The notes under the pieces were generated by a model that saw nothing but the letters and a program-made list of their open reading frames with translations, made no database searches and was not told the origin of the DNA. A program made the translations under genes and the position numbers. Positions 29,642 to 43,907 of a stretch of 55,597 nucleotides of DNA are shown piece after piece. This DNA comes from Candidatus Tayloriibacteriota bacterium (GTDB lineage Bacteria > Patescibacteriota > Minisyncoccia > Phycocordibacterales > PALSA-1337). The stretch is from NCBI GenBank assembly GCA_028286665.1, contig JAQBRD010000003.1:1-55597 (forward strand), written 5' to 3'. The stretch's first letter is position 1, and the number at the start of each line of letters is the position of its first letter.

Positions 29642-31228
29642 ATGAACAAAAAACCACAGGTAGCTCTTATCGTGCTCGACGGCTGGGGCCATCGCGAAGA
29701 CACGACGCACAATGCTGTCGCGGCGGCGAAGACGCCGTATTTCGATTCGATCTGGAAGCAGTATCCGCATTCACTCCTCGAAGCATCCGGCCTCGCCGTC
29801 GGACTCCCTGAAGGCCAGATGGGCAATAGCGAGATCGGCCACACCACCATCGGCGCCGGCAAGGTGATCGATACCGACCTCGTGCGCATCGCGAAAGCCA
29901 TCAAGGATGGCGAATTCAAGACCAACCCGGCTTTCGTGAAGCTTTTCAATCATGTGAAGAAATATGATTCGACGCTCCATGTGAAAGGCTTGCTCAGCAC
30001 CGGCGGCGTCCATAGCCACGAAGAGCATCTGTTCGCATTCCTCAAAGCCGTGAAGGAAATCGGCATCAAGAAAGTCGTCATCCACGCATTCACTGACGGC
30101 CGAGATACGCCGCCGCAAAGCGCAGCTGATTCTCTTGAGAAGCTCGAGCACCTCATCGCGGAACTCGGCATCGGAAAGATCGCTACCGCCTCAGGCCGCT
30201 TCTATGCAATGGACCGCGACAACAATTGGGATCGCCTCGCAAAAGCAGAGGCAGCGATGTTCGAATGCAAGGCCAATGCCTGCACGCCGAAGAAGCCATC
30301 TGAATTCCTCCGCGAACTCTACAAAAATGGAACAAAGGATGAGACGCTCGACCCGATCGTCTTTCTCGATGAGAACGGCAAAGGATACAAAGTCGAGCAG
30401 AATGACGGCGTCTTCTTCTTCAATTTCCGCAAGGACCGAACGCGCATGCTCTCGAAGAAGCTCGCCGATATGGCGAAGGCGAAGAATCTCGCATACGTGA
30501 CCCTCACAGAATATGATCCCGAGATCATCGCCGACGTTGCCTTCCCCACCATCGCAATCGAGACGACGCTTGCGAAAGAAGTCGCCGAAGCGAACCTCAC
30601 CCAGGCGCACATTGCTGAAACCGAGAAATTTCCGCACGCGACGTATTTCCTCAATGGAGGAACTGACAAGCCGCACAAAGGAGAGAAGCATATCATGCTC
30701 GACAGCCACAAAGTTCCAGACGCGAAGCGCGCGCCGCATGTGAAGAAGGACGCCGACGGGACTTTCGCATTCACCCATGACATGGCCCCGATGATGCGCG
30801 CAGAAGCGATCGCAGACAAGGCGATCGAGGAGGTCAATGCTGGCACCGATCTCATTTTCATCAATTTCGCAAATCCAGACATGGTCGGGCACACGGCGAA
30901 TGTTCCCGCGATCATCGAGGCCGTCGAGGAAACCGATGCGCAGCTCAAGCGCGTCTGCGATGCGATGCTCGCGCGAGCGAAGGCTAGCGGCGCTGAAGAA
31001 TTCATCTTCGTGACTGCAGACCACGGCAATGCCGAAGTGAATATTGATCCGATGACCGGCGAGAGACATACATCTCACACGATCAGCCCGGTTCCAGCCA
31101 TTCTCATACAGTCGAATGTGATGCACGCGAAGCTTGCGCATGGAGGCCTCGCCGACATCACCCCGACGATTCTGAAAATCCTCGGCGTACCGCAGCCGAA
31201 ATCGATGACAGGCAAATCGCTTATCTAA
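29642..31228 (+). CDS. gpmI: 2,3-bisphosphoglycerate-independent phosphoglycerate mutase
   Basis: LDGWG, GQMGNSEIGH, DGRDTPP, GRFYAMDRD, NPDMVGH and TADHGNAE motifs. Confidence 0.97.
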   Translation: MNKKPQVALIVLDGWGHREDTTHNAVAAAKTPYFDSIWKQYPHSLLEASGLAVGLPEGQMGNSEIGHTTIGAGKVIDTDLVRIAKAIKDGEFKTNPAFVKLFNHVKKYDSTLHVKGLLSTGGVHSHEEHLFAFLKAVKEIGIKKVVIHAFTDGRDTPPQSAADSLEKLEHLIAELGIGKIATASGRFYAMDRDNNWDRLAKAEAAMFECKANACTPKKPSEFLRELYKNGTKDETLDPIVFLDENGKGYKVEQNDGVFFFNFRKDRTRMLSKKLADMAKAKNLAYVTLTEYDPEIIADVAFPTIAIETTLAKEVAEANLTQAHIAETEKFPHATYFLNGGTDKPHKGEKHIMLDSHKVPDAKRAPHVKKDADGTFAFTHDMAPMMRAEAIADKAIEEVNAGTDLIFINFANPDMVGHTANVPAIIEAVEETDAQLKRVCDAMLARAKASGAEEFIFVTADHGNAEVNIDPMTGERHTSHTISPVPAILIQSNVMHAKLAHGGLADITPTILKILGVPQPKSMTGKSLI

Positions 31229-32511
31229 TCTCCCTTTTCTTCAAGCCTCTTTTCAAGCCTCAGGATCGCCGCCATATATTTCACGAACAGCACCATGAGC
31301 GTCGTCCACAAGACGCCGATCGCATAGCCTGCGACGACATCGGAAAGCCAATGCACATTGAGGTAGAGGCGGCTCAGCGGTACGAGAAAGCTGATGATGA
31401 CCGCGGCAGCGATCGCTGCTTCCCTCGCGTGATGGTTCTTGATATGGATGAAGCAGACATAAATGAGCGCCACGCAGCCGAAGGCAGCCATTCCCGCATG
31501 AAGGCTCGGGAAGCTGAAGTCGCTGTAGAGCGTAGCGCCGCCCTCAGGCCGCACGCGCATGACGAGCTCCTTGATGAAGCCGATCCAGCCCATCGTGCCG
31601 CCGAGCGACAGGATGAGGAATGCGAAGTCTTTGTAGTTTCGTTTCAAAAAATAAATGCCTGTCGCGATAATGCCGAGCAAGGCGAACGTCACCGGACTCA
31701 GCGCATTCGTGATGAATGACATGATTCCTGTCATGAGCGAGCCTGCAGGAGCAGCATGAGCCGACATCCACACGTTCACTGCGAGATCGAGCTGCTCCAT
31801 GAACGAGTGGGCGCTGACCGTATCCTGGATCATCTTGAAGCTCACGTACAGCGAGACGAGCATGAGTCCGAGTGTGAAAAGATCGTACTTGACGAAGACA
31901 TGCCATCGCTTATTGATGAAGCTATATGCCCAGATCATGATGAGCGCGATGATGAAGCCTGCGAGGACGAACTTGCCCATGACTCCTGCAGCAGCATGGT
32001 ATCCGGCGCCGAAGACATACCCGATGAGCACCGAGCTCACTGCCCAGCTCACGCCGGCGATGATATCGTACAGCCAGAACTTTCCGGCGTGTCCGCCGCT
32101 TGCGCCGACGATGAATGGCATGAGCGTTCTCGTGAGCGGATTGAATCGTCCGAAAATGATTGCCTTGCCGGTATGCTTCGCGACGAGCTGCTTCGCTTTT
32201 TCAATATGGCTCTCACGGATCGAAAGGTACCTGCTTACGCGTTCGAGAAAACCGAATCCGTATTTCCTGCCGAGGCAGAACGCTATCCCATCGCCGAGTA
32301 TGGCGCCGAATCCTCCGAGCATGAGTACTGCAGGCAGGCTCAGCACTCCGATTTTGGCCATGAATCCCGCGAGGATGATGATGGTATGCCCAGGAACGAC
32401 CGAACCGATGAGCGGCAAGCCTTCGAGGATGGACGTAATAAAAATGACCGCATATCCGCCATGAGCGACGATGCTTTCGAGATGATGGATGAACGGCGCG
32501 AAGAGATGCAT
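31225..32511 (-). CDS. Bifunctional DedA/VTT + PAP2 membrane protein
   Basis: DedA: LEG...PG, GD...F.LGR, FGRF.P..R; PAP2: K....RVRP, SFPSLH, SRLYLNVHWLSDV. Confidence 0.93.
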   Translation of the reverse strand: MHLFAPFIHHLESIVAHGGYAVIFITSILEGLPLIGSVVPGHTIIILAGFMAKIGVLSLPAVLMLGGFGAILGDGIAFCLGRKYGFGFLERVSRYLSIRESHIEKAKQLVAKHTGKAIIFGRFNPLTRTLMPFIVGASGGHAGKFWLYDIIAGVSWAVSSVLIGYVFGAGYHAAAGVMGKFVLAGFIIALIMIWAYSFINKRWHVFVKYDLFTLGLMLVSLYVSFKMIQDTVSAHSFMEQLDLAVNVWMSAHAAPAGSLMTGIMSFITNALSPVTFALLGIIATGIYFLKRNYKDFAFLILSLGGTMGWIGFIKELVMRVRPEGGATLYSDFSFPSLHAGMAAFGCVALIYVCFIHIKNHHAREAAIAAAVIISFLVPLSRLYLNVHWLSDVVAGYAIGVLWTTLMVLFVKYMAAILRLEKRLEEKGD

Positions 32512-32556
32512 GGAGGTAGTATAGCAAATATTCAAGCTCGTCGAATGAATGCATAT

Positions 32557-32590
32557 AAAAAGGAGAGGCTCTGTCTTGGAAGACAGAGCC
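32557..32590 (-). terminator. Intrinsic terminator of the candidate large ncRNA
   Basis: Minus strand GGCTCTGTCT-TCCA-AGACAGAGCC-TCTCC-TTTTT. Confidence 0.75.
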
Positions 32591-33144
32591 CTTTGTGACT
32601 GATTACTCGATTTGTGCTATTTCGGTTCCTGTGAAGTTACATACCCTCACAGGAACCTAGAGAAGAAGAACTGCATCATGGTTTACCTTCAGGATTTTTT
32701 CCAGTAATTTCTTCTCGAAATTACTGATAAATCCGGAAAGCTAGTTTGTTTTTAATCTATCAATGCGGTATTGCTGGTTACTCGGCCCATTTGGCCTTAA
32801 CCCCTTTTTCTTCTTTTCATAGTGCAAACAATCTATGATCAGAAGGATGAGCTACTCTTATCCTCGCGATGTCTAGCCTAGTTTAACTAGTGCTAGTTAC
32901 ATCTGCCTTCATGGTGTATCGACGTTGATTCATCGGTCAATCGATACCTTTGTGACTATTTCACTGCTGAAGGTGATTTGTTAGTCGCTGAGCCTGCCAC
33001 TCCTTGGCTTGGCTATCTTTCCCTATTAGTGCGTTTGGCTTCATAAGCCGTTGAGTTCCGCTAACCTGAGGAACCTGCACTCTGTGATTATATCTTCCGA
33101 AGCCGATTGGCTTCTACGTAACGTCTTGTCGTTTACTCTGTTAC
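32557..33144 (-). ncRNA. Candidate large (~590 nt) highly structured non-coding RNA, family unrecognised
   Basis: No minus-strand ORF of 60 aa or more; own promoter and terminator; at least 10 stem-loops plus long-range pairings. Confidence 0.65.
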
Positions 33145-33150
33145 ATGTGT

Positions 33151-33178
33151 ATCATAGCATATACATGCAATTTGTCAA
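33151..33178 (-). promoter_or_regulatory. sigma70 promoter for the candidate ncRNA
   Basis: TTGACA (33178-33173)-16 nt ending TGC-TATGAT (33156-33151). Confidence 0.7.
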
Positions 33179-33280
33179 GTACATTTACCATATGCAAAAT
33201 AAAATCTTTATGAATTTCTTATCTGAAACTGCAGCAGAAAAGTTCGACGAGTTGCGGCATGAGACGGTATACTGCTCTAC

Positions 33281-33952
33281 ATGAAATTACTGATCATCGA
33301 GGATGATATCGCCGCCGCCGCATTCATGAAAACAAGCTTCGAGTCCGCTTCGCATGTCGTCGATCTCGCGCACAATGGCACCGACGGATCCTATGCCGCG
33401 CGAATCAATCCATATGACGTGATCATCCTCGACTTCTCGATGCCGAAGAAAAACGGACTGAAAGTCTGCGAAGAGATCCGTTCCGCCGGCAAGACCGTGC
33501 CGATACTCTTCCTTTCAGTCATCGGCGATACTGCGAAGAAAGTCGATGCGCTCGAGAAGGGCGCCGACGATTATATGACCAAGCCATTCTCATTCGACGA
33601 GCTGCATGCCCGAGTGCGAGCGCTCGCGCGCAGGCCGCATAAGATCGAGACATCCATACTTACCGCCGGAGATCTGAGCCTCAATACCGAGCGTCAGGTA
33701 GCAGTCCGCGGAGGCACCGCAATATATCTGACAAGAAAGGAATATACCCTGCTCGAGTATCTGATGCGGAATCAGGGCACGATATTATCGCGTGGTATGA
33801 TCATGGAGCATGTCTGGAACGCGGACAGCGATCCTTTTTCAAATACCATCGAAGCGCACATCCTCAATCTTCGGAAGAAGGTGAATATCGGACGGAGAAA
33901 GGATTTCATCCGGAATGTTCCAGGACGAGGATACATGATCGCTGTCGAATAG
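33281..33952 (+). CDS. OmpR/PhoB-family response regulator
   Basis: LLIIEDD, IILDFSMP, GADDYMTKPF, LTRKEYTLLEYL and IRNVPGRGY motifs; TATACT -10 just upstream (leaderless). Confidence 0.96.
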   Translation: MKLLIIEDDIAAAAFMKTSFESASHVVDLAHNGTDGSYAARINPYDVIILDFSMPKKNGLKVCEEIRSAGKTVPILFLSVIGDTAKKVDALEKGADDYMTKPFSFDELHARVRALARRPHKIETSILTAGDLSLNTERQVAVRGGTAIYLTRKEYTLLEYLMRNQGTILSRGMIMEHVWNADSDPFSNTIEAHILNLRKKVNIGRRKDFIRNVPGRGYMIAVE

Positions 33953-34064
33953 TGCTTCATGAATATTTCATATTTTTTTGATCAGCAATTCATGCCGGTC
34001 AGATAGAATGACTGGGATCATGAAGGTCGACGTGATCAACGATCATATAAACAAACATACCCAA

Positions 34065-34166
34065 ATGAGCATTCTCATCAAACAACTATTGCGTGACGCC
34101 GAGCAGCGGAAGAAGGCTTCCGTAGCAGCGCATTCGGAAAGCGACTTTGCCCCATGGAACGGCTAG
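34065..34166 (+). CDS. Putative ComX-like signalling peptide precursor (33 aa)
   Basis: MSILIKQLLRDAEQRKKASVAAHSESDFAPWNG; single Trp third from the C-terminus; lies between the response regulator and kinase genes. Confidence 0.55.
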   Translation: MSILIKQLLRDAEQRKKASVAAHSESDFAPWNG

Positions 34167-34183
34167 AGTCTGCAACATCACAA

Positions 34184-35611
34184 ATGGCAGCCATAACGCG
34201 CTTCGTGCAAAGGCGCGTTATCGCGCTGATACGTCCGAAATCAACTGACGAGGATACGCATCGCGAAGAATTGATTCTCAATACCATTCTTCTCACCTCG
34301 ATCGCACTGCTGCTTGTGCTCGATGCGACCATACTCTACAATCTCCCCGCTTTCGGAGCCGCATACCAGGGCGTGCATTTCATTCCGTTCACGATCATCC
34401 TGGCCATATTCGCAAGCTTGTTCGTCCTATCGAGGCGCGGAAAAGTCCGCCTGGCATCCTATCTCCTCATCAGCTTCTATATAATCGGCACCATATACTG
34501 CGGTTATGAATGGGGCGCAAGCCTGCCTGCGACGCTTCTCACGACGACGCTCGTCATCATCACTTCAAGCATCCTTATCGGAACCCGATGCGGCATGATC
34601 GTCTCGGTCGCAATGGTGTGCATTCTTTCCTATCTCGGTTTCCACGAATACAAAGTGCTCGGCGTCCAAGCATGGAAATACACCACCATCAGCACGACAG
34701 ACATCATCACCTATTCGGGAATCTTCTTCTTCATCACGCTCCTTTCATGGCTCTCAAACAGAGAAATCGAGAACTCGTTGAAACGTGCCCGGAAATCAGA
34801 GGGAGAATTGAGAACGGAACGCGACAATCTTGAGATGACCGTCACTGAGCGGACGGAGTCCCTGCGCAAGATGCAGCTTGATCAGATGGTCTACCTGTCG
34901 AGATCCGCTGAATTCGGAGAACTTTCCCGAGGATTATTCCACGATCTCATGACTCCCCTTGTTTCGATTTCGCTCGGCATAGATGCGCTCGGAAAGACCA
35001 GCTCGCCAGAAGTGAGGACTCTCCGCGAATCCCTCAGCAAGACCATCGAAGCATCCAACAGAATGGGAGAGTTCATGTCGACAGTACGGAAGACGATGCG
35101 GTCCTCAGAGTCTTCCCTGCAACCAGCGACCGCACCTCAGCTCGAGAAAACCTGCGATCTGAAGGAGTCTCTCGAATACATCCTTCAGATTCTTGGCTAT
35201 AAGATGCGGAATGCAGACGTGAAAGTAATCCATGAATATATCGGATTCAACGAAAATCCGATCATATGCAAAGATCATGTATTGATAGAGAGAATCCTCC
35301 TCAACCTCATATCGAATGCGATCGACTCATATGCGAGCTTGCCCGAGCTCGATGAAAAGAAAATCGAAGTCTGCCTGAGCAAATCAGAGGAATGCATCGA
35401 GATACAGGTCTCAGATCATGGCTGCGGCATCCCGAAGCAAAATATGAAACAGATATTCAATCCTTTCTTCACGACAAAATCGAATGAGAGAGGAAGCGGA
35501 CTCGGACTTACTATCGTGAAAACGATCGCAGAAAAAGATCTCGGCGGAACCGTCGGAATAAAGAGCGAAGCAGGAAAAGGCACCGATATACAGATAACGT
35601 TTCCTCATTAA
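34184..35611 (+). CDS. Membrane-embedded sensor histidine kinase (HisKA/HATPase)
   Basis: About 5-6 N-terminal TMs with short loops; FHDLMTPL, NLISNAID, DHGCGI, FNPFFTTK and GSGLGL boxes; alternative start at 34154. Confidence 0.95.
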   Translation: MAAITRFVQRRVIALIRPKSTDEDTHREELILNTILLTSIALLLVLDATILYNLPAFGAAYQGVHFIPFTIILAIFASLFVLSRRGKVRLASYLLISFYIIGTIYCGYEWGASLPATLLTTTLVIITSSILIGTRCGMIVSVAMVCILSYLGFHEYKVLGVQAWKYTTISTTDIITYSGIFFFITLLSWLSNREIENSLKRARKSEGELRTERDNLEMTVTERTESLRKMQLDQMVYLSRSAEFGELSRGLFHDLMTPLVSISLGIDALGKTSSPEVRTLRESLSKTIEASNRMGEFMSTVRKTMRSSESSLQPATAPQLEKTCDLKESLEYILQILGYKMRNADVKVIHEYIGFNENPIICKDHVLIERILLNLISNAIDSYASLPELDEKKIEVCLSKSEECIEIQVSDHGCGIPKQNMKQIFNPFFTTKSNERGSGLGLTIVKTIAEKDLGGTVGIKSEAGKGTDIQITFPH

Positions 35612-35623
35612 TCAAATCTCAAT

Positions 35624-37510
35624 ATGCACACCAAACAACTCGACCATATGATCGAGCAGCTTTCGACGCACCTCGACTCCATGCATTCCAAAGACAAGCT
35701 GCTGCAAAGCAGAAACATATTCATCCCTGCGCTTATTCTGCTTGCGCTTCATTCAGGAAAAGAACATAGGCGAATCCAGAATATCTGCGACACGCTCATC
35801 GCTCATATTCTTGAAAATAAAAATGATGCCTGGACATGGAATTACTGGCCGAGATCGACAGGAAAGAAAACCTCAGCATCAGAACGGCCATCCTACCCCG
35901 ACGACATGGATGACACGAGCTGCGCGATCGCAGCTATCGCGCTCTGGCGGCCTGAAATGCTCTCAGGAGAAGCATTTGCGAATATAACGAAAGCTCTCAT
36001 CGCCTGCGAAACGCAGCCTGGCGGCCCTTATTTCACCTGGATAGGCGGCATGAGAGCCTCGCAGACTCCTGACATAGGCGTGAATGCGAACATCTCTTTC
36101 ATGCTTTCCCTCATAGGAGTATCGATGCCCGAACTCACAGAGTCAATCGATCATGAATTGCGCTTGGAGCAGCCCGCATCACAATTCTATTCGAACAGAA
36201 TGATGATCTTGTATTTCATTTCGCGCAATTATTCGGGAAAGGAGAAATCCCGGCTGATAGAAAAAATATGCACTGAAGGCAAGTCCAATCTCATGGATGC
36301 AGCTCTCGCAGCGAGCTCGCTCATCCGGCTTGATGCTCCTGATGGAATCATTTCTGAACACATCGCCAAGCTCGGCTCGTTCACGGTGTCGATCGGAAAA
36401 AGTGAGGCTCACCCGATGTATATCGAAAAGATCGCAAACGGAATCATCCAATATGCGACATCTGAAGCCTTCACCGCTGCAGCTGCCTTGGAGGCGTTGC
36501 TTCTCTGCAGATTGCGCCTCCAGGAGAAAACTGAGAAAGGACGCCGCGACATCGAAGCGGCAGCCGAGAATCAGATCCAATTGGCAATCATCGAAAAACT
36601 GCATTCTGAGACAAAGAGCCTCTCTTCCGAAATGAAAGCAGCATTCGACGCGCATCTTGAAAAATTCAGATCAGCAAGCCACTGGAACGAGATCGCGCTC
36701 CTGCCCTATTCGCTCGTTCGCAATTTTCCAGATGCAGATGCTGTCGCGGCAGTTGTCGGAGCTGTCGGCGTCCTTGGCTGGATCGCATACACCATCGACG
36801 ACATGAGCATGGATGAACCGATGTCCGGTCATGGGAAAGAAATTCCTCTCTCGCGTTTCATCCATAGGAAGATCGAGCATCTGATCAGGGCGGAATTGCT
36901 GCCAGCGGCAGCAGAAGGCACTCGATCAAGAATAGAAAGATACATCGGCAAAGTCTTCATCGATCTCGACAATGCGCATCATGCCGAAATCCTCGGCAAA
37001 AAAGTATCAATGACCGAAAAGTCATTCGGGCACGCGCTCCCGGTCATGCTCATCGCGCATGTATTCTCAAAAAATATCCGAAACGGGGATGCCGAGCAGA
37101 GCGTCTGCGAAAATCTGCTGAAGATGCTGGAGATGAGCTGCTCGCACTACATACTCGCCCGGCAGCTGTCAGACGACGCGCACGATTGGCAGGAAGACAT
37201 GAATTCAGGCCGGCTTACCGACGTAACTGAAATGATGCAGAGAGCCGCGAACGCTCCTATGACTGCATTCGCGCCGGAAAATGCAGAGAAGAGCATGCGT
37301 GACATATTCTGGAATGAATGCGCTCTTCGGATAGCTGACAGGATCCTCGAGCACGCCATGAATGCGAAACAGCTCGCCGAGAAATGCAGTATTCTCGACG
37401 AGCGTTTCGATATGAGTTTCCTGATCCGATGCATCTCGCGATATGAGGCTATCGGGAGATCGATGACTGAAGATATTCGGAAGACGAAGGAATTCCTTGC
37501 TGCGTACTGA
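35624..37510 (+). CDS. Fused class II terpene-cyclase-like + class I isoprenoid synthase/prenyltransferase-like protein
   Basis: N-terminal WTWNYW, YPDDMDDT (DxDD) and D..VNAN; C-terminal YTIDDMSMD, EKS and QLSDDAHDWQED...GRLT. Confidence 0.65.
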   Translation: MHTKQLDHMIEQLSTHLDSMHSKDKLLQSRNIFIPALILLALHSGKEHRRIQNICDTLIAHILENKNDAWTWNYWPRSTGKKTSASERPSYPDDMDDTSCAIAAIALWRPEMLSGEAFANITKALIACETQPGGPYFTWIGGMRASQTPDIGVNANISFMLSLIGVSMPELTESIDHELRLEQPASQFYSNRMMILYFISRNYSGKEKSRLIEKICTEGKSNLMDAALAASSLIRLDAPDGIISEHIAKLGSFTVSIGKSEAHPMYIEKIANGIIQYATSEAFTAAAALEALLLCRLRLQEKTEKGRRDIEAAAENQIQLAIIEKLHSETKSLSSEMKAAFDAHLEKFRSASHWNEIALLPYSLVRNFPDADAVAAVVGAVGVLGWIAYTIDDMSMDEPMSGHGKEIPLSRFIHRKIEHLIRAELLPAAAEGTRSRIERYIGKVFIDLDNAHHAEILGKKVSMTEKSFGHALPVMLIAHVFSKNIRNGDAEQSVCENLLKMLEMSCSHYILARQLSDDAHDWQEDMNSGRLTDVTEMMQRAANAPMTAFAPENAEKSMRDIFWNECALRIADRILEHAMNAKQLAEKCSILDERFDMSFLIRCISRYEAIGRSMTEDIRKTKEFLAAY

Positions 37511-40667: not shown

Positions 40668-43600
40668 ATGAAACGATACCTGATACTCTTCGCATTTGTC
40701 CTGTTCTCCGTCGCATACGCGCCATCCTCCAATGCTGAATTCTTCGCGAACAGCATCCCCCTCCCAGGAACGATCACCGTCAATAGCAACGGCGTGAACG
40801 CGATCGCAGTCGGGACCTCGACGATATATATCGGCGGGTCTTTCACCTATGCCGGTCCTTATTCAGGAAATTTCGTTTCAATATCGCCATCGACTGGAAC
40901 AGCTACGACGAGCTCATATGACAAAGTCCACGGCATCGTCAATGCGAGCATCCCGGACGGTCGAGGCGGGTGGTATGTAATCGGCGGATTCATAAAGGTC
41001 GCCTCATCATCCCGCAACGATCTCGCGCATATACTCCCGGACGGAACCGTGGATCCGAACTTCAATCCGAGCCTCGACAGCGAGAGCAACGCCCTCGCTC
41101 TCTCTTCGGATGGCTCCATACTCTATATCGGAGGATTTTTCAGCACAGTCGGCAGCACGACGAGGAATAGGCTTGCAGCCGTAAATACGTCCGATGGTTC
41201 AGTCGTAGCATCCTTCAATCCGAATATGAGCGGCGGAGTCACCGCACTTGCTCTCTCATCGGATAATTCGATACTGTATGCCGGCGGTTTCTTCACGACA
41301 GTCGGCGGCGTGACGTACAACAGGCTGGCAGCAATCAATACTGCAGATGGCACGGCGATCTCTGCTTTCAATCCGAATCTCAACAGTACCGTGAGCGCGC
41401 TTGCGCTTTCGTCCGACGGATCGAAGCTCTATGCGGGAGGATCGTTCACCACGGTCGGCGTAACGACGCGCAATCGGCTTGCAGGAATCACGACCTCGAA
41501 TGGCGCGCTCATCTCGGGCTTCAACCCGAACATGGGCAGCACTGTCAACGCTCTCGCGCTTTCATCTGACAATACGAAGATATATGCCGGCGGTTCCTTC
41601 ACGACAGTCGGCGGCGCGACGTACAACAGGCTGGCGGCAATCAATACTGCAGATGGCACGGCGATCTCTGCTTTCAATCCGAACATGGACGGCACGGTAA
41701 CAGCCCTGAAACTTTCGTCTGACGATTCGAAGGTGTTTGCTGGAGGATCCTTCGCCAATATGGGTTCTGCTACATCAAGCGGCCTCGCTGCGATACAGAC
41801 GTCCGATGGCACCGCAGTTTCCGGCTTCAGTCCAAACGTAGTAGGAAATATCATGACGATCTCCATGTCTGCGGACGGGTCTGCGATGGGCATCGGCGGA
41901 ACATACGTCTCCGTAGGCGGCAGCGTCCGCAACAGGCTGGCGGCAGTCGATATAACCGGCAGCACCCTTTCTTCTTTCAATCCGAATCTCAACAATACCG
42001 TCAACGCGCTTGCACTTTCATCCGACGGATCGAAACTCTATGTAGGAGGAACATTCACAGCGGTCGGCGGCACGACGCGCAATCGGCTTGCAGGAATCAC
42101 GACTTCCGACGGCGCAGTCATCTCAGGCTTCAATCCGAACGTAGGCAATACCGTCAATACCCTCAAGCTTTCTTCAGACGATGCGAAGATATACGCAGGA
42201 GGATTATTCACGACGGTCGGCGTAACGACGCGCAATCGGCTTGCAGGAATCACGACCTCGAATGGCGCGCTCATCTCGGGCTTCAACCCGAACATGAACA
42301 ACACAGTCAACTCTCTTGCGCTGTCATCCGACGATGCGATGATCTATGCGGGAGGAACATTTAGTACGGTGGGCGGCGTGACGTACAACAGGCTGGCGGG
42401 AATAAACGCATCGAACGGTACCGCAAGCTCGACATTCAACCCAAATATGGGCAACACAGTCAATAGCATCGCCCTCTCTTCTGACAATACAAAACTCTAT
42501 GTAGGAGGAACATTCACCACGGTCGGCGGCGTGACGTACAACAGGCTGGCGGGAATCAATACGGCGACTGGGGCTGCGATTTCGACTTTCAATCCGAACC
42601 TGAATGTCAACGTCAACGGAATTGCCCTCTCCCCCGATGGTTCGAAACTCTATGCAGGAGGACTGTTCACGACTGTCGGCGGCGCGACATACAATCGGCT
42701 TGCAGGAATTACGACTTCCAACGGCGCAGTCATCTCAACATTCAATCCCAGCATGGAAAGCACGGTGAACACCCTCACGATTTCTTCTGACGGAAAAAAG
42801 CTCTATGCCGGGGGATTATTCGCCTACTCGGATCTCAATAGTGCAGCGAGGAATTTCGCCATATTCTCGGGAGGAGGAGTGACGGTGAGCACGACGACTG
42901 CAGCCGCGACGGAAGGAGCGGCCGGAGACAGCTATACCGTCGTCCTTGATGCAGAACCGACGGCGAATGTGACCGTCACGATAACGCCTGATCCGAGCAA
43001 TCTCTCGACATCGCCTTCAAGCCTCGCCTTTACGGCTTCGAATTGGAATATCCCTCAAACAGTGATAATTACTGCCATTTCGAATAACAGCATCGAAGGC
43101 ACGCACACTGCTTCGATCAGCCATTCTATTTCAAGTTCCGATTCCTCATACAGCGGAATTTCGGTCACCCCCATCACAATAACGATCACGGACAGCACGC
43201 CGCACAATCCGACAGTCACCGCGAGCGCTGCGGCCTCGACTACAGAATCAGGAACAACGCTCTCAGGCGCGATAACAGCCGACGGCGTCGCATCATCTAC
43301 CGAACGAGGCTTCGTATACGGCAAAACCACCTCGTATGGCGCGACAAGCACGCAAAGCGGGATATTCGGCATCGGTTCGTTCACCGCCGATATCGCAGGG
43401 CTCAGCAGCGGCAGCCTCTATCATTTTCAGGCATATGCGACAAACGCTTCCGGAACGGCATACAGCAGCGACCTCACCCTCACGACAGTACCTGCTGCAA
43501 ATCAGCCCCAGGCTTACAAGACATCGTCTGCGCGCAGAGCCGCCAATCAGGAAGCTTCGGTCAGCACGAAAATCCTCATCGTAACCCAGACTCCGCCTGC

Positions 43601-43907
43601 ACCGAATGAAACCGCATCGAGCCCTGCCGGACAAGATATTGCTTCGCCAAAAACCCCCTCCGCTCAAGCATTCGCGAGGCCGCTCGCATATGGCAAGACT
43701 GGCAGCGACGTGAAGCAACTGCAGCAGTATCTCAATGCCAAAGGCTACGCACTGGCAGCATCAGGTCCTGGATCTGTCGGAAATGAGACGAACTTCTTCG
43801 GCCCGCGCACGCAGGCAGCGCTCCTGAAATTCCAGAAGGCAAACGGGATTTCCGCAACCGGATATTTCGGCCCGGTCACCAAGGCATTCGTCGGGAATTC
43901 GCGCTAA
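40668..43907 (+). CDS. Large secreted surface protein: beta-propeller repeats, Ig/Fn3-like domains and a C-terminal peptidoglycan-binding domain
   Basis: Signal peptide; ~51-aa repeats (V.ALALSSDG.KLY.GG.FT.VGG.T.NRLA.I....G.....FNPN); C-terminal G.DVKQLQQYLN...FGPRTQAALLKFQ...TGYFGPVT. Confidence 0.9.
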   Translation: MKRYLILFAFVLFSVAYAPSSNAEFFANSIPLPGTITVNSNGVNAIAVGTSTIYIGGSFTYAGPYSGNFVSISPSTGTATTSSYDKVHGIVNASIPDGRGGWYVIGGFIKVASSSRNDLAHILPDGTVDPNFNPSLDSESNALALSSDGSILYIGGFFSTVGSTTRNRLAAVNTSDGSVVASFNPNMSGGVTALALSSDNSILYAGGFFTTVGGVTYNRLAAINTADGTAISAFNPNLNSTVSALALSSDGSKLYAGGSFTTVGVTTRNRLAGITTSNGALISGFNPNMGSTVNALALSSDNTKIYAGGSFTTVGGATYNRLAAINTADGTAISAFNPNMDGTVTALKLSSDDSKVFAGGSFANMGSATSSGLAAIQTSDGTAVSGFSPNVVGNIMTISMSADGSAMGIGGTYVSVGGSVRNRLAAVDITGSTLSSFNPNLNNTVNALALSSDGSKLYVGGTFTAVGGTTRNRLAGITTSDGAVISGFNPNVGNTVNTLKLSSDDAKIYAGGLFTTVGVTTRNRLAGITTSNGALISGFNPNMNNTVNSLALSSDDAMIYAGGTFSTVGGVTYNRLAGINASNGTASSTFNPNMGNTVNSIALSSDNTKLYVGGTFTTVGGVTYNRLAGINTATGAAISTFNPNLNVNVNGIALSPDGSKLYAGGLFTTVGGATYNRLAGITTSNGAVISTFNPSMESTVNTLTISSDGKKLYAGGLFAYSDLNSAARNFAIFSGGGVTVSTTTAAATEGAAGDSYTVVLDAEPTANVTVTITPDPSNLSTSPSSLAFTASNWNIPQTVIITAISNNSIEGTHTASISHSISSSDSSYSGISVTPITITITDSTPHNPTVTASAAASTTESGTTLSGAITADGVASSTERGFVYGKTTSYGATSTQSGIFGIGSFTADIAGLSSGSLYHFQAYATNASGTAYSSDLTLTTVPAANQPQAYKTSSARRAANQEASVSTKILIVTQTPPAPNETASSPAGQDIASPKTPSAQAFARPLAYGKTGSDVKQLQQYLNAKGYALAASGPGSVGNETNFFGPRTQAALLKFQKANGISATGYFGPVTKAFVGNSR
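41050..42830 (+). repeat. Intragenic ~153-bp tandem repeats (about a dozen units)
   Basis: For example an identical 84-bp stretch at 41451-41534 and 42213-42296. Confidence 0.85.

Follow-up and report, generated by a model that had tools for sequence, protein, structure and literature searches.

Two fused enzymes are known that prenylate a Trp of a ribosomal peptide and then cyclise the attached prenyl group: NctPC, an ABBA-fold transferase with a MstE-like cyclase, and ChrPC, a transferase resembling trans-isoprenyl diphosphate synthases (abbreviated trans-IDS) with a cyclase (available part of PMC13290415, citing Hubrich et al. 2024). In ChrPC the P domain prenylates an internal Trp and the C domain cyclises, with prenyl lengths of C10-C20; in such transferases the Gln before the second Asp-rich motif and the first Asp of that motif position the Trp indole (same part of PMC13290415). 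Here we analysed a 55,597-nt stretch (“the window”; contig JAQBRD010000003.1, positions 1 to 55,597, assembly GCA_028286665.1) of a Candidatus Tayloriibacteriota bacterium, from the Patescibacteria (candidate phyla radiation, CPR). Its forward strand carries the gene of a two-domain enzyme, the last in a cassette with an OmpR-type response regulator, a short Trp-containing peptide and a histidine kinase. From sequence comparison, structure models and analogy, the enzyme is on balance probably a bifunctional maturase, which would prenylate the Trp of the peptide and then cyclise the prenyl group, within a make-and-sense cassette similar to ComQXPA.

The cassette logic was compared with that of Bacillus ComQXPA (as outlined in part of PMC4008528) and of Sphaerobacter thermophilus StheQ/StheX (as outlined in part of bioRxiv 10.64898/2026.08.29.745113). 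ComQ and StheQ have a pseudo-second Asp-rich motif (pseudo-SARM), NDxxx (same part of the preprint), and ComQ works without a cyclase (PMC13290415, part). For the cyclase, the reference was the bacterial drimenol synthase AsDMS. Its catalytic residues are D331, D333 and Y427, the variants D331A/N, D333N and Y427F being inactive; Y427 hydrogen-bonds the catalytic Asp, and four Arg (R378, R380, R425 and R513) hold the diphosphate of farnesyl diphosphate (FPP) (all from the available part of PMC12365925).

Based on sequence and models, we are very confident that the window enzyme joins a class II cyclase beta domain to a prenyltransferase-fold domain, and fairly confident that it would act on the adjacent Trp peptide. 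We are less sure that the product would be a pheromone sensed by the adjacent kinase. A sequence-only reading of the window had presented a cyclised terpenyl group on the Trp of a ribosomally synthesised and post-translationally modified peptide (RiPP) as a new modification. This chemistry is not new, having been described for ChrPC and NctPC (PMC13290415, part).

The two-domain enzyme

The enzyme gene, its domains and its motifs are as follows:

35624..37510, + strand: two-domain enzyme gene (terpene cyclase beta domain and prenyltransferase-type alpha domain), a single unbroken open reading frame (ORF) of 628 aa
35624..36520, + strand: N-terminal class II terpene cyclase beta domain, about residues 1-299, from profile and Foldseek matches
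36521..37507, + strand: C-terminal domain with the trans-isoprenyl-diphosphate-synthase fold (prenyltransferase-type), residues 300-628, from fold and profile-profile match
Enzyme residues 70-75: WTWNYW
35894..35917, + strand: YPDDMDDT, the DxDD(T) general-acid motif, residues 91-98; D94/D96 align with AsDMS D331/D333
36020..36040, + strand: GGPYFTW, residues 133-139, inserted in this family relative to AsDMS and belonging to the predicted leader-docking surface
36185..36190, + strand: F188-Y189; Y189 aligns with AsDMS Y427
36788..36814, + strand: YTIDDMSMD, the first Asp-rich motif, residues 389-397; the family consensus is YTIYDDFLD, i.e., DDxxD
Enzyme residues 465-467: EKS
37163..37198, + strand: QLSDDAHDWQED, Gln and second Asp-rich motif (Q514, D517, D518, H520, D521, D525)
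37163-37219: QLSDDAHDWQED..GRLT, residues 514-532

The ORF and the motifs quoted in the sequence-only reading were real and located within two bases of the positions given there; YTIDDMSMD, placed at 36790, starts two bases earlier, at 36788. The same motifs coincided with the best-conserved regions in an alignment of 81 full-length homologues, which shared 25-41% identity with the window enzyme. Invariant in the N-terminal half were Y74, P92, D94, D96, E129, G134, P135, Y136, T138, W139, D150, V153, N154 and Y189, and in the C-terminal half W386, D393, D397, E455, S467, Q514, D517, D521 and D525. Six further residues (D93, D97, T98, D518, H520 and W522) were present in at least 90% of the rows. 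Conservation of the Asp motifs among homologues, which had been proposed as a check, was complete for D94, D96, D393, D397, D517 and D521 (81/81).

At E ≤ 1e-3 the family had 1328 cluster representatives, and at E ≤ 1e-30 it still had 588; the best 150 members listed were 542-698 aa long. Searches of Pfam, NCBIfam and PDB sequences with the single protein gave no significant match. Only seven relatives were recovered by a word-indexed homologue search, the reach of which was limited to Patescibacteria, whether the query was the single protein or the 81-sequence profile. For the entire enzyme, the AlphaFold2 model had a predicted local distance difference test score (pLDDT) of 91.9 and a predicted TM-score (pTM) of 0.90. 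Both folds expected from the motifs, the alpha-alpha barrel and the prenyl-synthase fold, were recognized in the structure models, the former with Foldseek and the latter with an exhaustive VIA search. Hydropathy predicted no membrane segment in the enzyme, except for one buried helix (373-391).

The N-terminal cyclase domain

Judged by its sequence, the N-terminal half consists of one class II cyclase domain, in which the catalytic residues are intact and no place for a diphosphate head group is visible. The class is the one assigned from the motifs alone. Among PDB sequences, the 81-sequence profile matched the AsDMS cyclase domain with an E-value of 9.2e-16 (profile positions 41-310 against chain positions 265-523), and the fungal AstC with 2.9e-4. 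Foldseek with the whole-enzyme model gave 25 matches at E ≤ 0.001, all of them class II cyclases. AsDMS was at the top (E 1.8e-7), followed by single-domain squalene-hopene-cyclase-like proteins, ent-copalyl diphosphate synthase, Streptomyces drimenyl diphosphate synthase, Rv3377c and MstE; protein farnesyltransferase beta subunits ranked below the class II cyclases. One homologue (P0007) had a precomputed match to PF28380, named AstC-like_C in the ESM Atlas.

The general acid, its partner Tyr and the alpha/alpha-barrel with profile similarity, which together characterize a single beta-domain class II cyclase, were all found. In the profile alignment, PDDLDDT of the family lay over PDDLDTT of AsDMS, and YY over Y426/Y427. 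The equivalents of the catalytic residues, D94, D96 and Y189, were kept in 81/81 homologues, and D97 and T98 in 76/81 each. Position 188, a Phe in the window enzyme, was Tyr in 79/81. The aromatic lining was conserved as well (Y74 in 81/81, W75 in 73/81, F33 in 78/81). WTWNYW and GGPYFTW had been taken for QW-like segments, and this assignment was not upheld: Y74 and W75 correspond in the alignment to F318 and Y319 of the AsDMS active site, and GGPYxTW is an insertion facing a gap in AsDMS, with G134, P135, Y136, T138 and W139 present in 81/81 homologues.

The diphosphate-binding Arg of AsDMS were not conserved in the family. The columns equivalent to R378, R380, R425 and R513 contained W (74/81), D (79/81), P (40/81; R in 10, K in 10) and G (35/81; K in 13). 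Because these Arg are missing, the cyclase would act on a substrate without diphosphate, for which, from the alignment, it seems to be built. Their loss argues against a substrate of the FPP type, not against cyclase chemistry.

The C-terminal prenyltransferase-type domain

Residues 300-628 folded alone gave a pLDDT of 94.0. The best VIA match of this model was solanesyl diphosphate synthase 9jqs_A (Z 23.2, root-mean-square deviation 3.1 over 277 residues), followed by many other trans-prenyl synthases (Z 22.9-20), the Trp farnesyltransferase Ord1 (Z 19.3) and the prenyltransferase domain of the Penicillium copalyl diphosphate synthase PvCPS (Z 19.1). The class I isoprenoid-synthase fold read from the motifs was confirmed in the form of a trans-prenyltransferase-type alpha domain. 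With the same model, Foldseek found no match at E ≤ 0.001; its top rows were all polyprenyl diphosphate synthases or prenyltransferases of the same fold. Three other identities were rejected on their VIA scores: a class I cyclase (Z ≤ 14.3), a class IB large-terpene synthase (5yo8, Z 14.2) and a squalene/phytoene-synthase-type domain (squalene synthase HpnC, Z only 12.7).

In hhalign, the trimmed alignment of the domain matched Patescibacteria polyprenyl synthases with E 4.8e-5 over 230 columns, a modest link with a probability of 68% and only 10 template sequences. The templates were those retained by a motif filter from 30 fetched synthase loci, with 20 discarded. A mixed alignment (A3) compared with one polyprenyl synthase sequence showed no relation (probability 0.2%). 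The alignment with the ten templates paired the first Asp-rich motif of the enzyme with that of the synthases (FARM), Q514-x-x-D517-D518-x-x-D521 with FQxxDDxxD, and K466-S467 with the KT motif. GGKRxR (GGKRlRp) of the synthases stood opposite a non-basic consensus, '~qI~LLP', and their RRG segment fell in a gap. Both GGKRxR and RRG bind isopentenyl diphosphate (IPP) in the synthases. The enzyme combines the all-alpha fold, FARM and SARM of a trans-isoprenyl diphosphate synthase (trans-IPPS) with the absence of the basic IPP-binding motifs. Since GGKRxR and RRG had no basic counterpart, we did not class it as a chain-elongating synthase. That it could be the FPP synthase missing from the genome was rejected as well, for lack of the IPP-binding motifs.

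The first Asp-rich motif had been described as degenerate, with altered or lost activity as a possible consequence. Seen across the family it is not decayed: the consensus is the canonical DDxxD, and both invariant Asp, D393 and D397, are in the DDMSMD of the window enzyme. The equivalents of the indole-positioning residues, Q514 and D517, were present in 81/81 homologues. By sequence and analogy, the C-terminal half is predicted to ionise a prenyl diphosphate without having the look of a chain elongator, like ComQ, PalQ, Ord1 and the P domain of ChrPC (PMC13290415, part).

The precursor peptide

34065..34166, + strand: unannotated 33-codon precursor peptide gene MSILIKQLLRDAEQRKKASVAAHSESDFAPWNG, with a conserved leader and the invariant W31

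In one-genome-per-species contigs, 390 loci were found, of which 79 were fetched and their ORFs called. A hidden Markov model (HMM) built from 54 seed peptides was run on 35,537 small-ORF variants from both strands of all 80 sources. Seventy-six loci were tabulated, and 69 loci had enough upstream sequence to be testable for the peptide. The HMM matched at the expected place in 66/69 testable loci, and nowhere else in the 76 tabulated loci. It matched 72 distinct ORFs: the 66 in place, two slightly beyond the distance window (L018, L080) and four at loci with a truncated enzyme, where peptides on the + strand were listed. As for the misses, L017 had a divergent ORF, likewise ending FAPWND, L018 had the peptide directly before the enzyme gene, and L065 had none. 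When the whole genome was scanned, the window peptide was the sole match (E 1.9e-10; next best 0.2). A Pfam scan of three peptides gave no match, ComX included.

The 66 peptides were 33-40 residues long and 65 of them were unique. They shared a leader with the consensus M-x7-LTDKxAR, followed by a variable middle, and L9 and W31 were invariant in their alignment. The Trp was preceded by a Pro in 54/66 peptides and followed by 0-6 residues. In the window peptide, the longest ORF form of which starts with TTG at 33978, W31 lies three residues from the C-terminus.

The complex of enzyme and peptide, predicted with both alignments, scored 0.68 (0.65, 0.68 and 0.73 in three runs), against 0.02 for the best control. 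This mark was reached by 116/157 solved complexes and 2/215 mismatched pairs, counts which are only rough, own alignments having been used. The runs agreed in at least 82% of contacts, and the partner pLDDT was at least 63. In the model, leader residues 1-15 lay on cyclase-domain residues 115-134 and 164-170, including the invariant E129 and the GGPY insertion, with residues 132-134 among the confident leader contacts. Beyond the leader, W31 was the sole peptide residue in confident contacts; on the side of the enzyme, the contact set also included the C-terminal helix and, from the second Asp motif, H520. Conservation of the contact residues was 0.66, versus 0.44 for the whole protein, a level reached by 3/10,000 random sets. 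The model supports binding of the peptide by the enzyme.

The gene cassette

33281..33952, + strand: OmpR-type response regulator, first gene of the cassette (Pfam Response_reg 3e-25, Trans_reg_C 1.7e-23)
34154..35611, + strand: polytopic membrane histidine kinase (Pfam HATPase_c 2.4e-26; weak HisKA match, 0.017)

The order of the cassette is OmpR-type regulator, peptide, histidine kinase and, last, the enzyme. Of the 66 peptide-anchored loci, 57 had an ORF of response-regulator size that ended upstream of the peptide gene and no more than 400 nt from it, and in 55 of these the ORF was a homologue of the window regulator. A kinase homologue started between -50 and +126 nt from the peptide stop in 64/66 loci, and the enzyme followed in 59/66. 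Where one of these genes was missed, contig ends or ORF-calling rules were mostly responsible. In the window, the kinase ATG lies within the Pro-Trp codons of the peptide, giving a 13-nt overlap; the same overlap was found in 5 of the 64 loci measured, the window included. The gap between kinase and enzyme ranged from -58 to +195 nt and is 12 nt in the window. Regulator and kinase were separated by 105-382 nt, containing a small ORF, in 44/45 loci, and by 1332 nt in L031, in which a synthase gene is inserted. In a simple hydropathy scan, the kinases mostly had 4-6 hydrophobic segments, all within about the first 190 residues, and lacked a large outside domain.

All parts of a ComQXPA-type cassette were found, namely a trans-IPPS-fold transferase, an adjacent Trp pre-peptide, and a kinase and a regulator on the same strand. 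The pseudo-SARM that marks ComQ was absent, the second motif here being an intact DDxHD.

A canonical polyprenyl synthase gene (Pfam 2.7e-47 in the one member checked) was located directly downstream of the enzyme in 11/76 loci, for example L012:9809-10891. In L031 such a gene (L031:5163-6197, Pfam 1.8e-54) lies within the cassette, between regulator and peptide. Downstream of the window enzyme, in place of the synthase, there is a DoxX gene on the opposite strand. An ATP-binding cassette (ABC) exporter was encoded at most four genes from the enzyme in only 9/76 loci, for example L038:11104-12936 (− strand, ABC_membrane and ABC_tran, 611 aa), and may be the peptide exporter in some lineages. 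No ABC exporter was found near the cassette in the window.

The regulator gene of the window is preceded by an unusually long gap of ~745 nt (32536-33280), with one 77-codon ORF inside. The gap has short inverted repeats, for example at 32624-32657 (16-nt arms) and 32567-32590 (perfect 11-nt arms); the repeats detected by a scan upstream of the regulator were all short and unremarkable. Further downstream, at 40668-43907 (+ strand), the window encodes a 1079-aa protein with an N-terminal signal-like segment and more than 10 copies of a ~50-residue repeat (FNPN...SSDGSKLYAGGxFTTVGG..RNRLA). Its C-terminal segment resembles a peptidoglycan-binding domain, and by these features it is probably a surface protein.

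Distribution

Relatives of the enzyme were found in at least 390 species-level genomes, from many lineages of the phylum. The titles of the 79 locus records included Parcubacteria/Paceibacterota, Saccharimonadia, Microgenomates, Levyi-, Davies-, Doudna-, Nomura-, Taylor- and Moraniibacteria, and CPR2. In a sample of 151 genomes of the phylum, the enzyme family was present in nine, one of them with a weak partial match, giving a patchy distribution. All six sampled genomes of one family carried the cassette enzyme. The ESM Atlas had similar two-domain clusters from Bacteroidota (691 and 621 aa, scores 0.94 and 0.93) and Chloroflexota (666 aa, 0.92), which we treat as leads only.

About 17 record titles read uncultured Gammaproteobacteria, Bdellovibrionales or Dormiibacterota, despite a Patescibacteria-type cassette, and five such genomes measured 0.8-1.7 Mb. 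The labels of these cassette-bearing records look doubtful; the loci which appeared mislabelled were L008, L011, L013, L021, L026, L040, L048, L050, L051, L055, L056, L059, L066, L070, L074 and L078.

Source of the prenyl donor

The genome from which the window comes (0.93 Mb, 34 contigs, 94% complete) was searched for isoprenoid genes, as the sequence-only reading had advised. No polyprenyl synthase, UppS, IspH, DXR, HMG-CoA reductase or GHMP kinase was found in it, and a tblastn search with the 10 Patescibacteria synthases gave a best E-value of 0.23. The genome encodes MraY, which requires a polyprenyl phosphate carrier. With MraY and none of the searched isoprenoid genes, its cell-wall lipid carrier is left without a visible origin. 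Beside the cassette, and divergent from it, the window encodes a 436-aa fusion of DedA/VTT and PAP2 phosphatase domains (31225-32535, − strand). In L002 and L017, homologues of this protein (blast cluster 5, 8 members) are encoded immediately upstream of the regulator. From the roles of its domains it could presumably recycle or flip polyprenyl phosphates, which would be relevant in a genome with MraY but no UppS.

The other carriers of the cassette presented a different picture. A canonical polyprenyl synthase was encoded in 11/12 of the carrier genomes searched (7/7 from the phylum sample and 4/5 further genomes), although six of the seven synthase-bearing carriers in the sample belong to one family and are not independent. 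UppS was present in 4/5 carriers, and IspH and a GHMP kinase in only 1/5 each. A donor supplied by a host, as suggested in the sequence-only reading, fits the gene content of the present genome and is a real possibility for this organism, but does not extend to the family in general. Alternatively, a gene of the donor pathway may be in the unassembled 6%.

Proposed mechanism and alternative explanations

In the mechanism that we propose, the conserved N-terminal leader helix of the peptide would dock on the conserved surface of the cyclase domain. The trans-IPPS-like C-terminal domain would ionise an allylic prenyl diphosphate, probably C15 or C20, by means of the first Asp-rich motif and Mg2+, and the prenyl group would be passed to the invariant Trp near the C-terminus of the peptide, as ComQ does to ComX. 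The class II cyclase domain would then protonate the distal double bond of the attached chain via D96, backed by Y189, giving a polycyclic terpene. Once matured, the peptide would be released, probably trimmed and exported, and sensed by the polytopic histidine kinase, which would signal to the OmpR-type regulator. We infer that transfer precedes cyclisation, because the cyclase lacks diphosphate-binding residues and a drimenyl-type diphosphate, which is no longer allylic, would be a poor prenyl donor. As to chain length, the nearest cyclase, AsDMS, acts on C15, and C10-C20 are given for ChrPC (PMC13290415, part).

Several observations weigh against a Trp-directed maturase in a signalling cassette. 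With respect to the enzyme, these are the modest profile-profile link of its C-terminal domain and the lack of a match to Pfam PF00348 (polyprenyl_synt), which at E ≤ 1 hit neither the enzyme nor anything else in the genome, while the controls were positive in 14/14 genomes. To them can be added three departures of the clade of the window enzyme from the family consensus, i.e., F188, no W at the equivalent of AsDMS R378, and M394 within the first Asp-rich motif. The output for the complex did not specify the enzyme residue in contact with W31. At the level of the cassette and the genome, there is no donor pathway visible in the genome, the distribution is patchy, and no exporter or leader protease was conserved across the loci. 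The order regulator-peptide-kinase-enzyme and the OmpR-type regulator both differ from ComQXPA, ComA being a LuxR/NarL-type regulator. No RNA runs were listed with the locus, and the sole run with it was DNA and may be the source sample.

Four other explanations were considered. It is unlikely, though by no means far-fetched, that the same chemistry yields something other than a pheromone, such as an antimicrobial, membrane-anchoring or host-directed lipopeptide, with the two-component system only controlling how it is produced or how the cell protects itself, as in the case of NisRK and nisin. The shared occurrence of peptide, enzyme and two-component system would suit both roles. In addition, the OmpR-type regulator is like NisR and unlike ComA, an ABC exporter is nearby in 9/76 loci, and a published cyclised-terpene RiPP reportedly has modest anti-cyanobacterial activity. 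However, most loci had no immunity gene, protease or dedicated exporter. The sensor is a polytopic kinase without a large outside domain, with a gene in translational coupling to that of the peptide, and ComP and AgrC, two kinases that sense peptides, have the same layout; moreover, the peptide cores were nearly all different (65/66 unique), as in ComX pherotypes. A role of the two-domain protein as a non-catalytic accessory of the two-component system, which would bind an isoprenoid lipid or the peptide and modulate the kinase, would account for the close linkage of its gene to the kinase gene (12-nt gap, probably co-transcribed) and for the lack of a visible donor pathway. The invariance of metal-binding and general-acid residues in both domains speaks against it, as does the absence of predicted membrane segments besides the buried helix 373-391, and of the four explanations this one is the most improbable.

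The remaining two concern the chemistry. If the cyclase-like domain merely recognized the leader, the peptide would be prenylated and not cyclised. The leader does dock on this domain in the model, at the two segments named above, and ComQ requires no cyclase (PMC13290415, part), but the retention of D94, D96, Y189 and the aromatic lining at 25-41% identity would be needless for a pure docking domain, and we regard prenylation without cyclisation as improbable. Still less probable is a free-terpenoid synthase like PvCPS, in which FPP or geranylgeranyl diphosphate (GGPP) would be made from IPP and DMAPP by the C-terminal domain and turned into a drimenyl- or copalyl-type diphosphate by the N-terminal domain, with no connection to the peptide. 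Such a synthase would have the architecture seen in PvCPS (prenyltransferase domain Z 19.1), and AsDMS, the closest solved cyclase, uses free FPP. Yet GGKRxR and RRG are without basic counterpart and the cyclase is without the diphosphate-binding Arg; 11/76 loci have a separate canonical synthase next door, and no IPP pathway is visible in the genome; the Trp peptide co-occurs in 66/69 loci, and the complex prediction passes. Both functions, Trp-peptide modification and synthesis of a free terpenoid, had been offered in the sequence-only reading. The former is clearly favoured because of the conserved adjacent Trp peptide, the complex prediction, and the loss of both the IPP-binding motifs and the cyclase diphosphate Arg.

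Patescibacteria are ultra-small and mostly uncultured, many of them are thought to dwell on other cells, and how they sense peers or hosts is essentially a blank. In the one literature collection searched, we found no description of a dedicated cell-to-cell signalling system in Patescibacteria, nor a link between such a kinase-coupled cassette and this group. Made up of just four genes, for a peptide, an enzyme, a kinase and a regulator, the cassette is a compact candidate. Tentatively, it could be a signalling system between Patescibacteria cells, with a polycyclic-terpene Trp peptide as the signal and, in lineages without a visible isoprenoid pathway or polyprenyl synthase, such as the present one, a prenyl donor taken from the host. 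Production of the signal would then indicate both how dense the population is and that a host has been successfully attached to. A maturase with a sensing kinase would extend the terpene-cyclised ribosomal peptides, described in 2024 as natural products, to signalling linked to a receptor kinase. ComX-like Trp lipidation would also gain a second example outside Firmicutes and Chloroflexi, one that is structurally distinct. For biocatalysis, the enzyme would be of interest as a leader-guided Trp prenyltransferase with a cyclase that accepts a substrate free of diphosphate.

Comparison with known systems

The N-terminal domain is closest, by profile and by fold, to AsDMS and the fungal AstC, which are HAD-TCbeta enzymes (AstC-like_C, PF28380, of Pfam 38.1). 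Common to them and the window enzyme are the DxD(D/T)T general acid, the partner Tyr and the aromatic lining. They differ in the partner domain, which is a HAD phosphatase in AsDMS and AstC and a prenyltransferase-fold domain here, in the four Arg for the FPP diphosphate, lost here, and in the additional GGPYxTW. MstE, the merosterolic acid synthase, offers a parallel for the proposed role, being a single beta domain that cyclises an aromatic-attached prenyl chain without diphosphate. It is more distant than AsDMS (Foldseek E ~8e-4), stands alone and has a small-molecule substrate. PvCPS shares the fusion of a class II cyclase to a trans-IPPS-fold domain; in PvCPS, the transferase uses IPP for elongation and GGPP is cyclised by a beta-gamma didomain, whereas the window enzyme has a single beta domain and no IPP-binding motifs.

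Among Trp prenyltransferases, Ord1 and PalQ resemble the C-terminal domain in their trans-IDS-like fold (Ord1 Z 19.3) and in the Gln just before the second Asp motif. Both stand alone without a cyclase, and PalQ needs a terminal Trp, versus the 0-6 residues after the Trp in the peptides described here. Bacillus ComQXPA and Sphaerobacter thermophilus StheQ/StheX likewise combine a trans-IPPS-fold transferase with a short pre-peptide that has its Trp a few residues from the C-terminus. With ComQXPA the cassette further shares the polytopic histidine kinase and response regulator, the co-directional genes and the highly variable peptide cores. Unlike ComQ and StheQ, the window enzyme has an additional class II cyclase domain and an intact DDxHD, and gives no match to Pfam polyprenyl_synt.

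Nearest in enzyme architecture are ChrPC and NctPC, which also carry a Trp-directed peptide prenyltransferase and a single-domain class II cyclase on one polypeptide. As in the ChrPC P domain, the transferase of the window enzyme is trans-IDS-like, and the window shows the ChrPC-type combination in full: such a domain joined to a single-domain class II cyclase on the same chain, and a Trp precursor encoded nearby. Compared by description only, the window enzyme is set apart from both by a cyclase which is N-terminal and closest to AsDMS/AstC, by a dedicated kinase and regulator, by a short ComX-like precursor, and by its occurrence in Patescibacteria.

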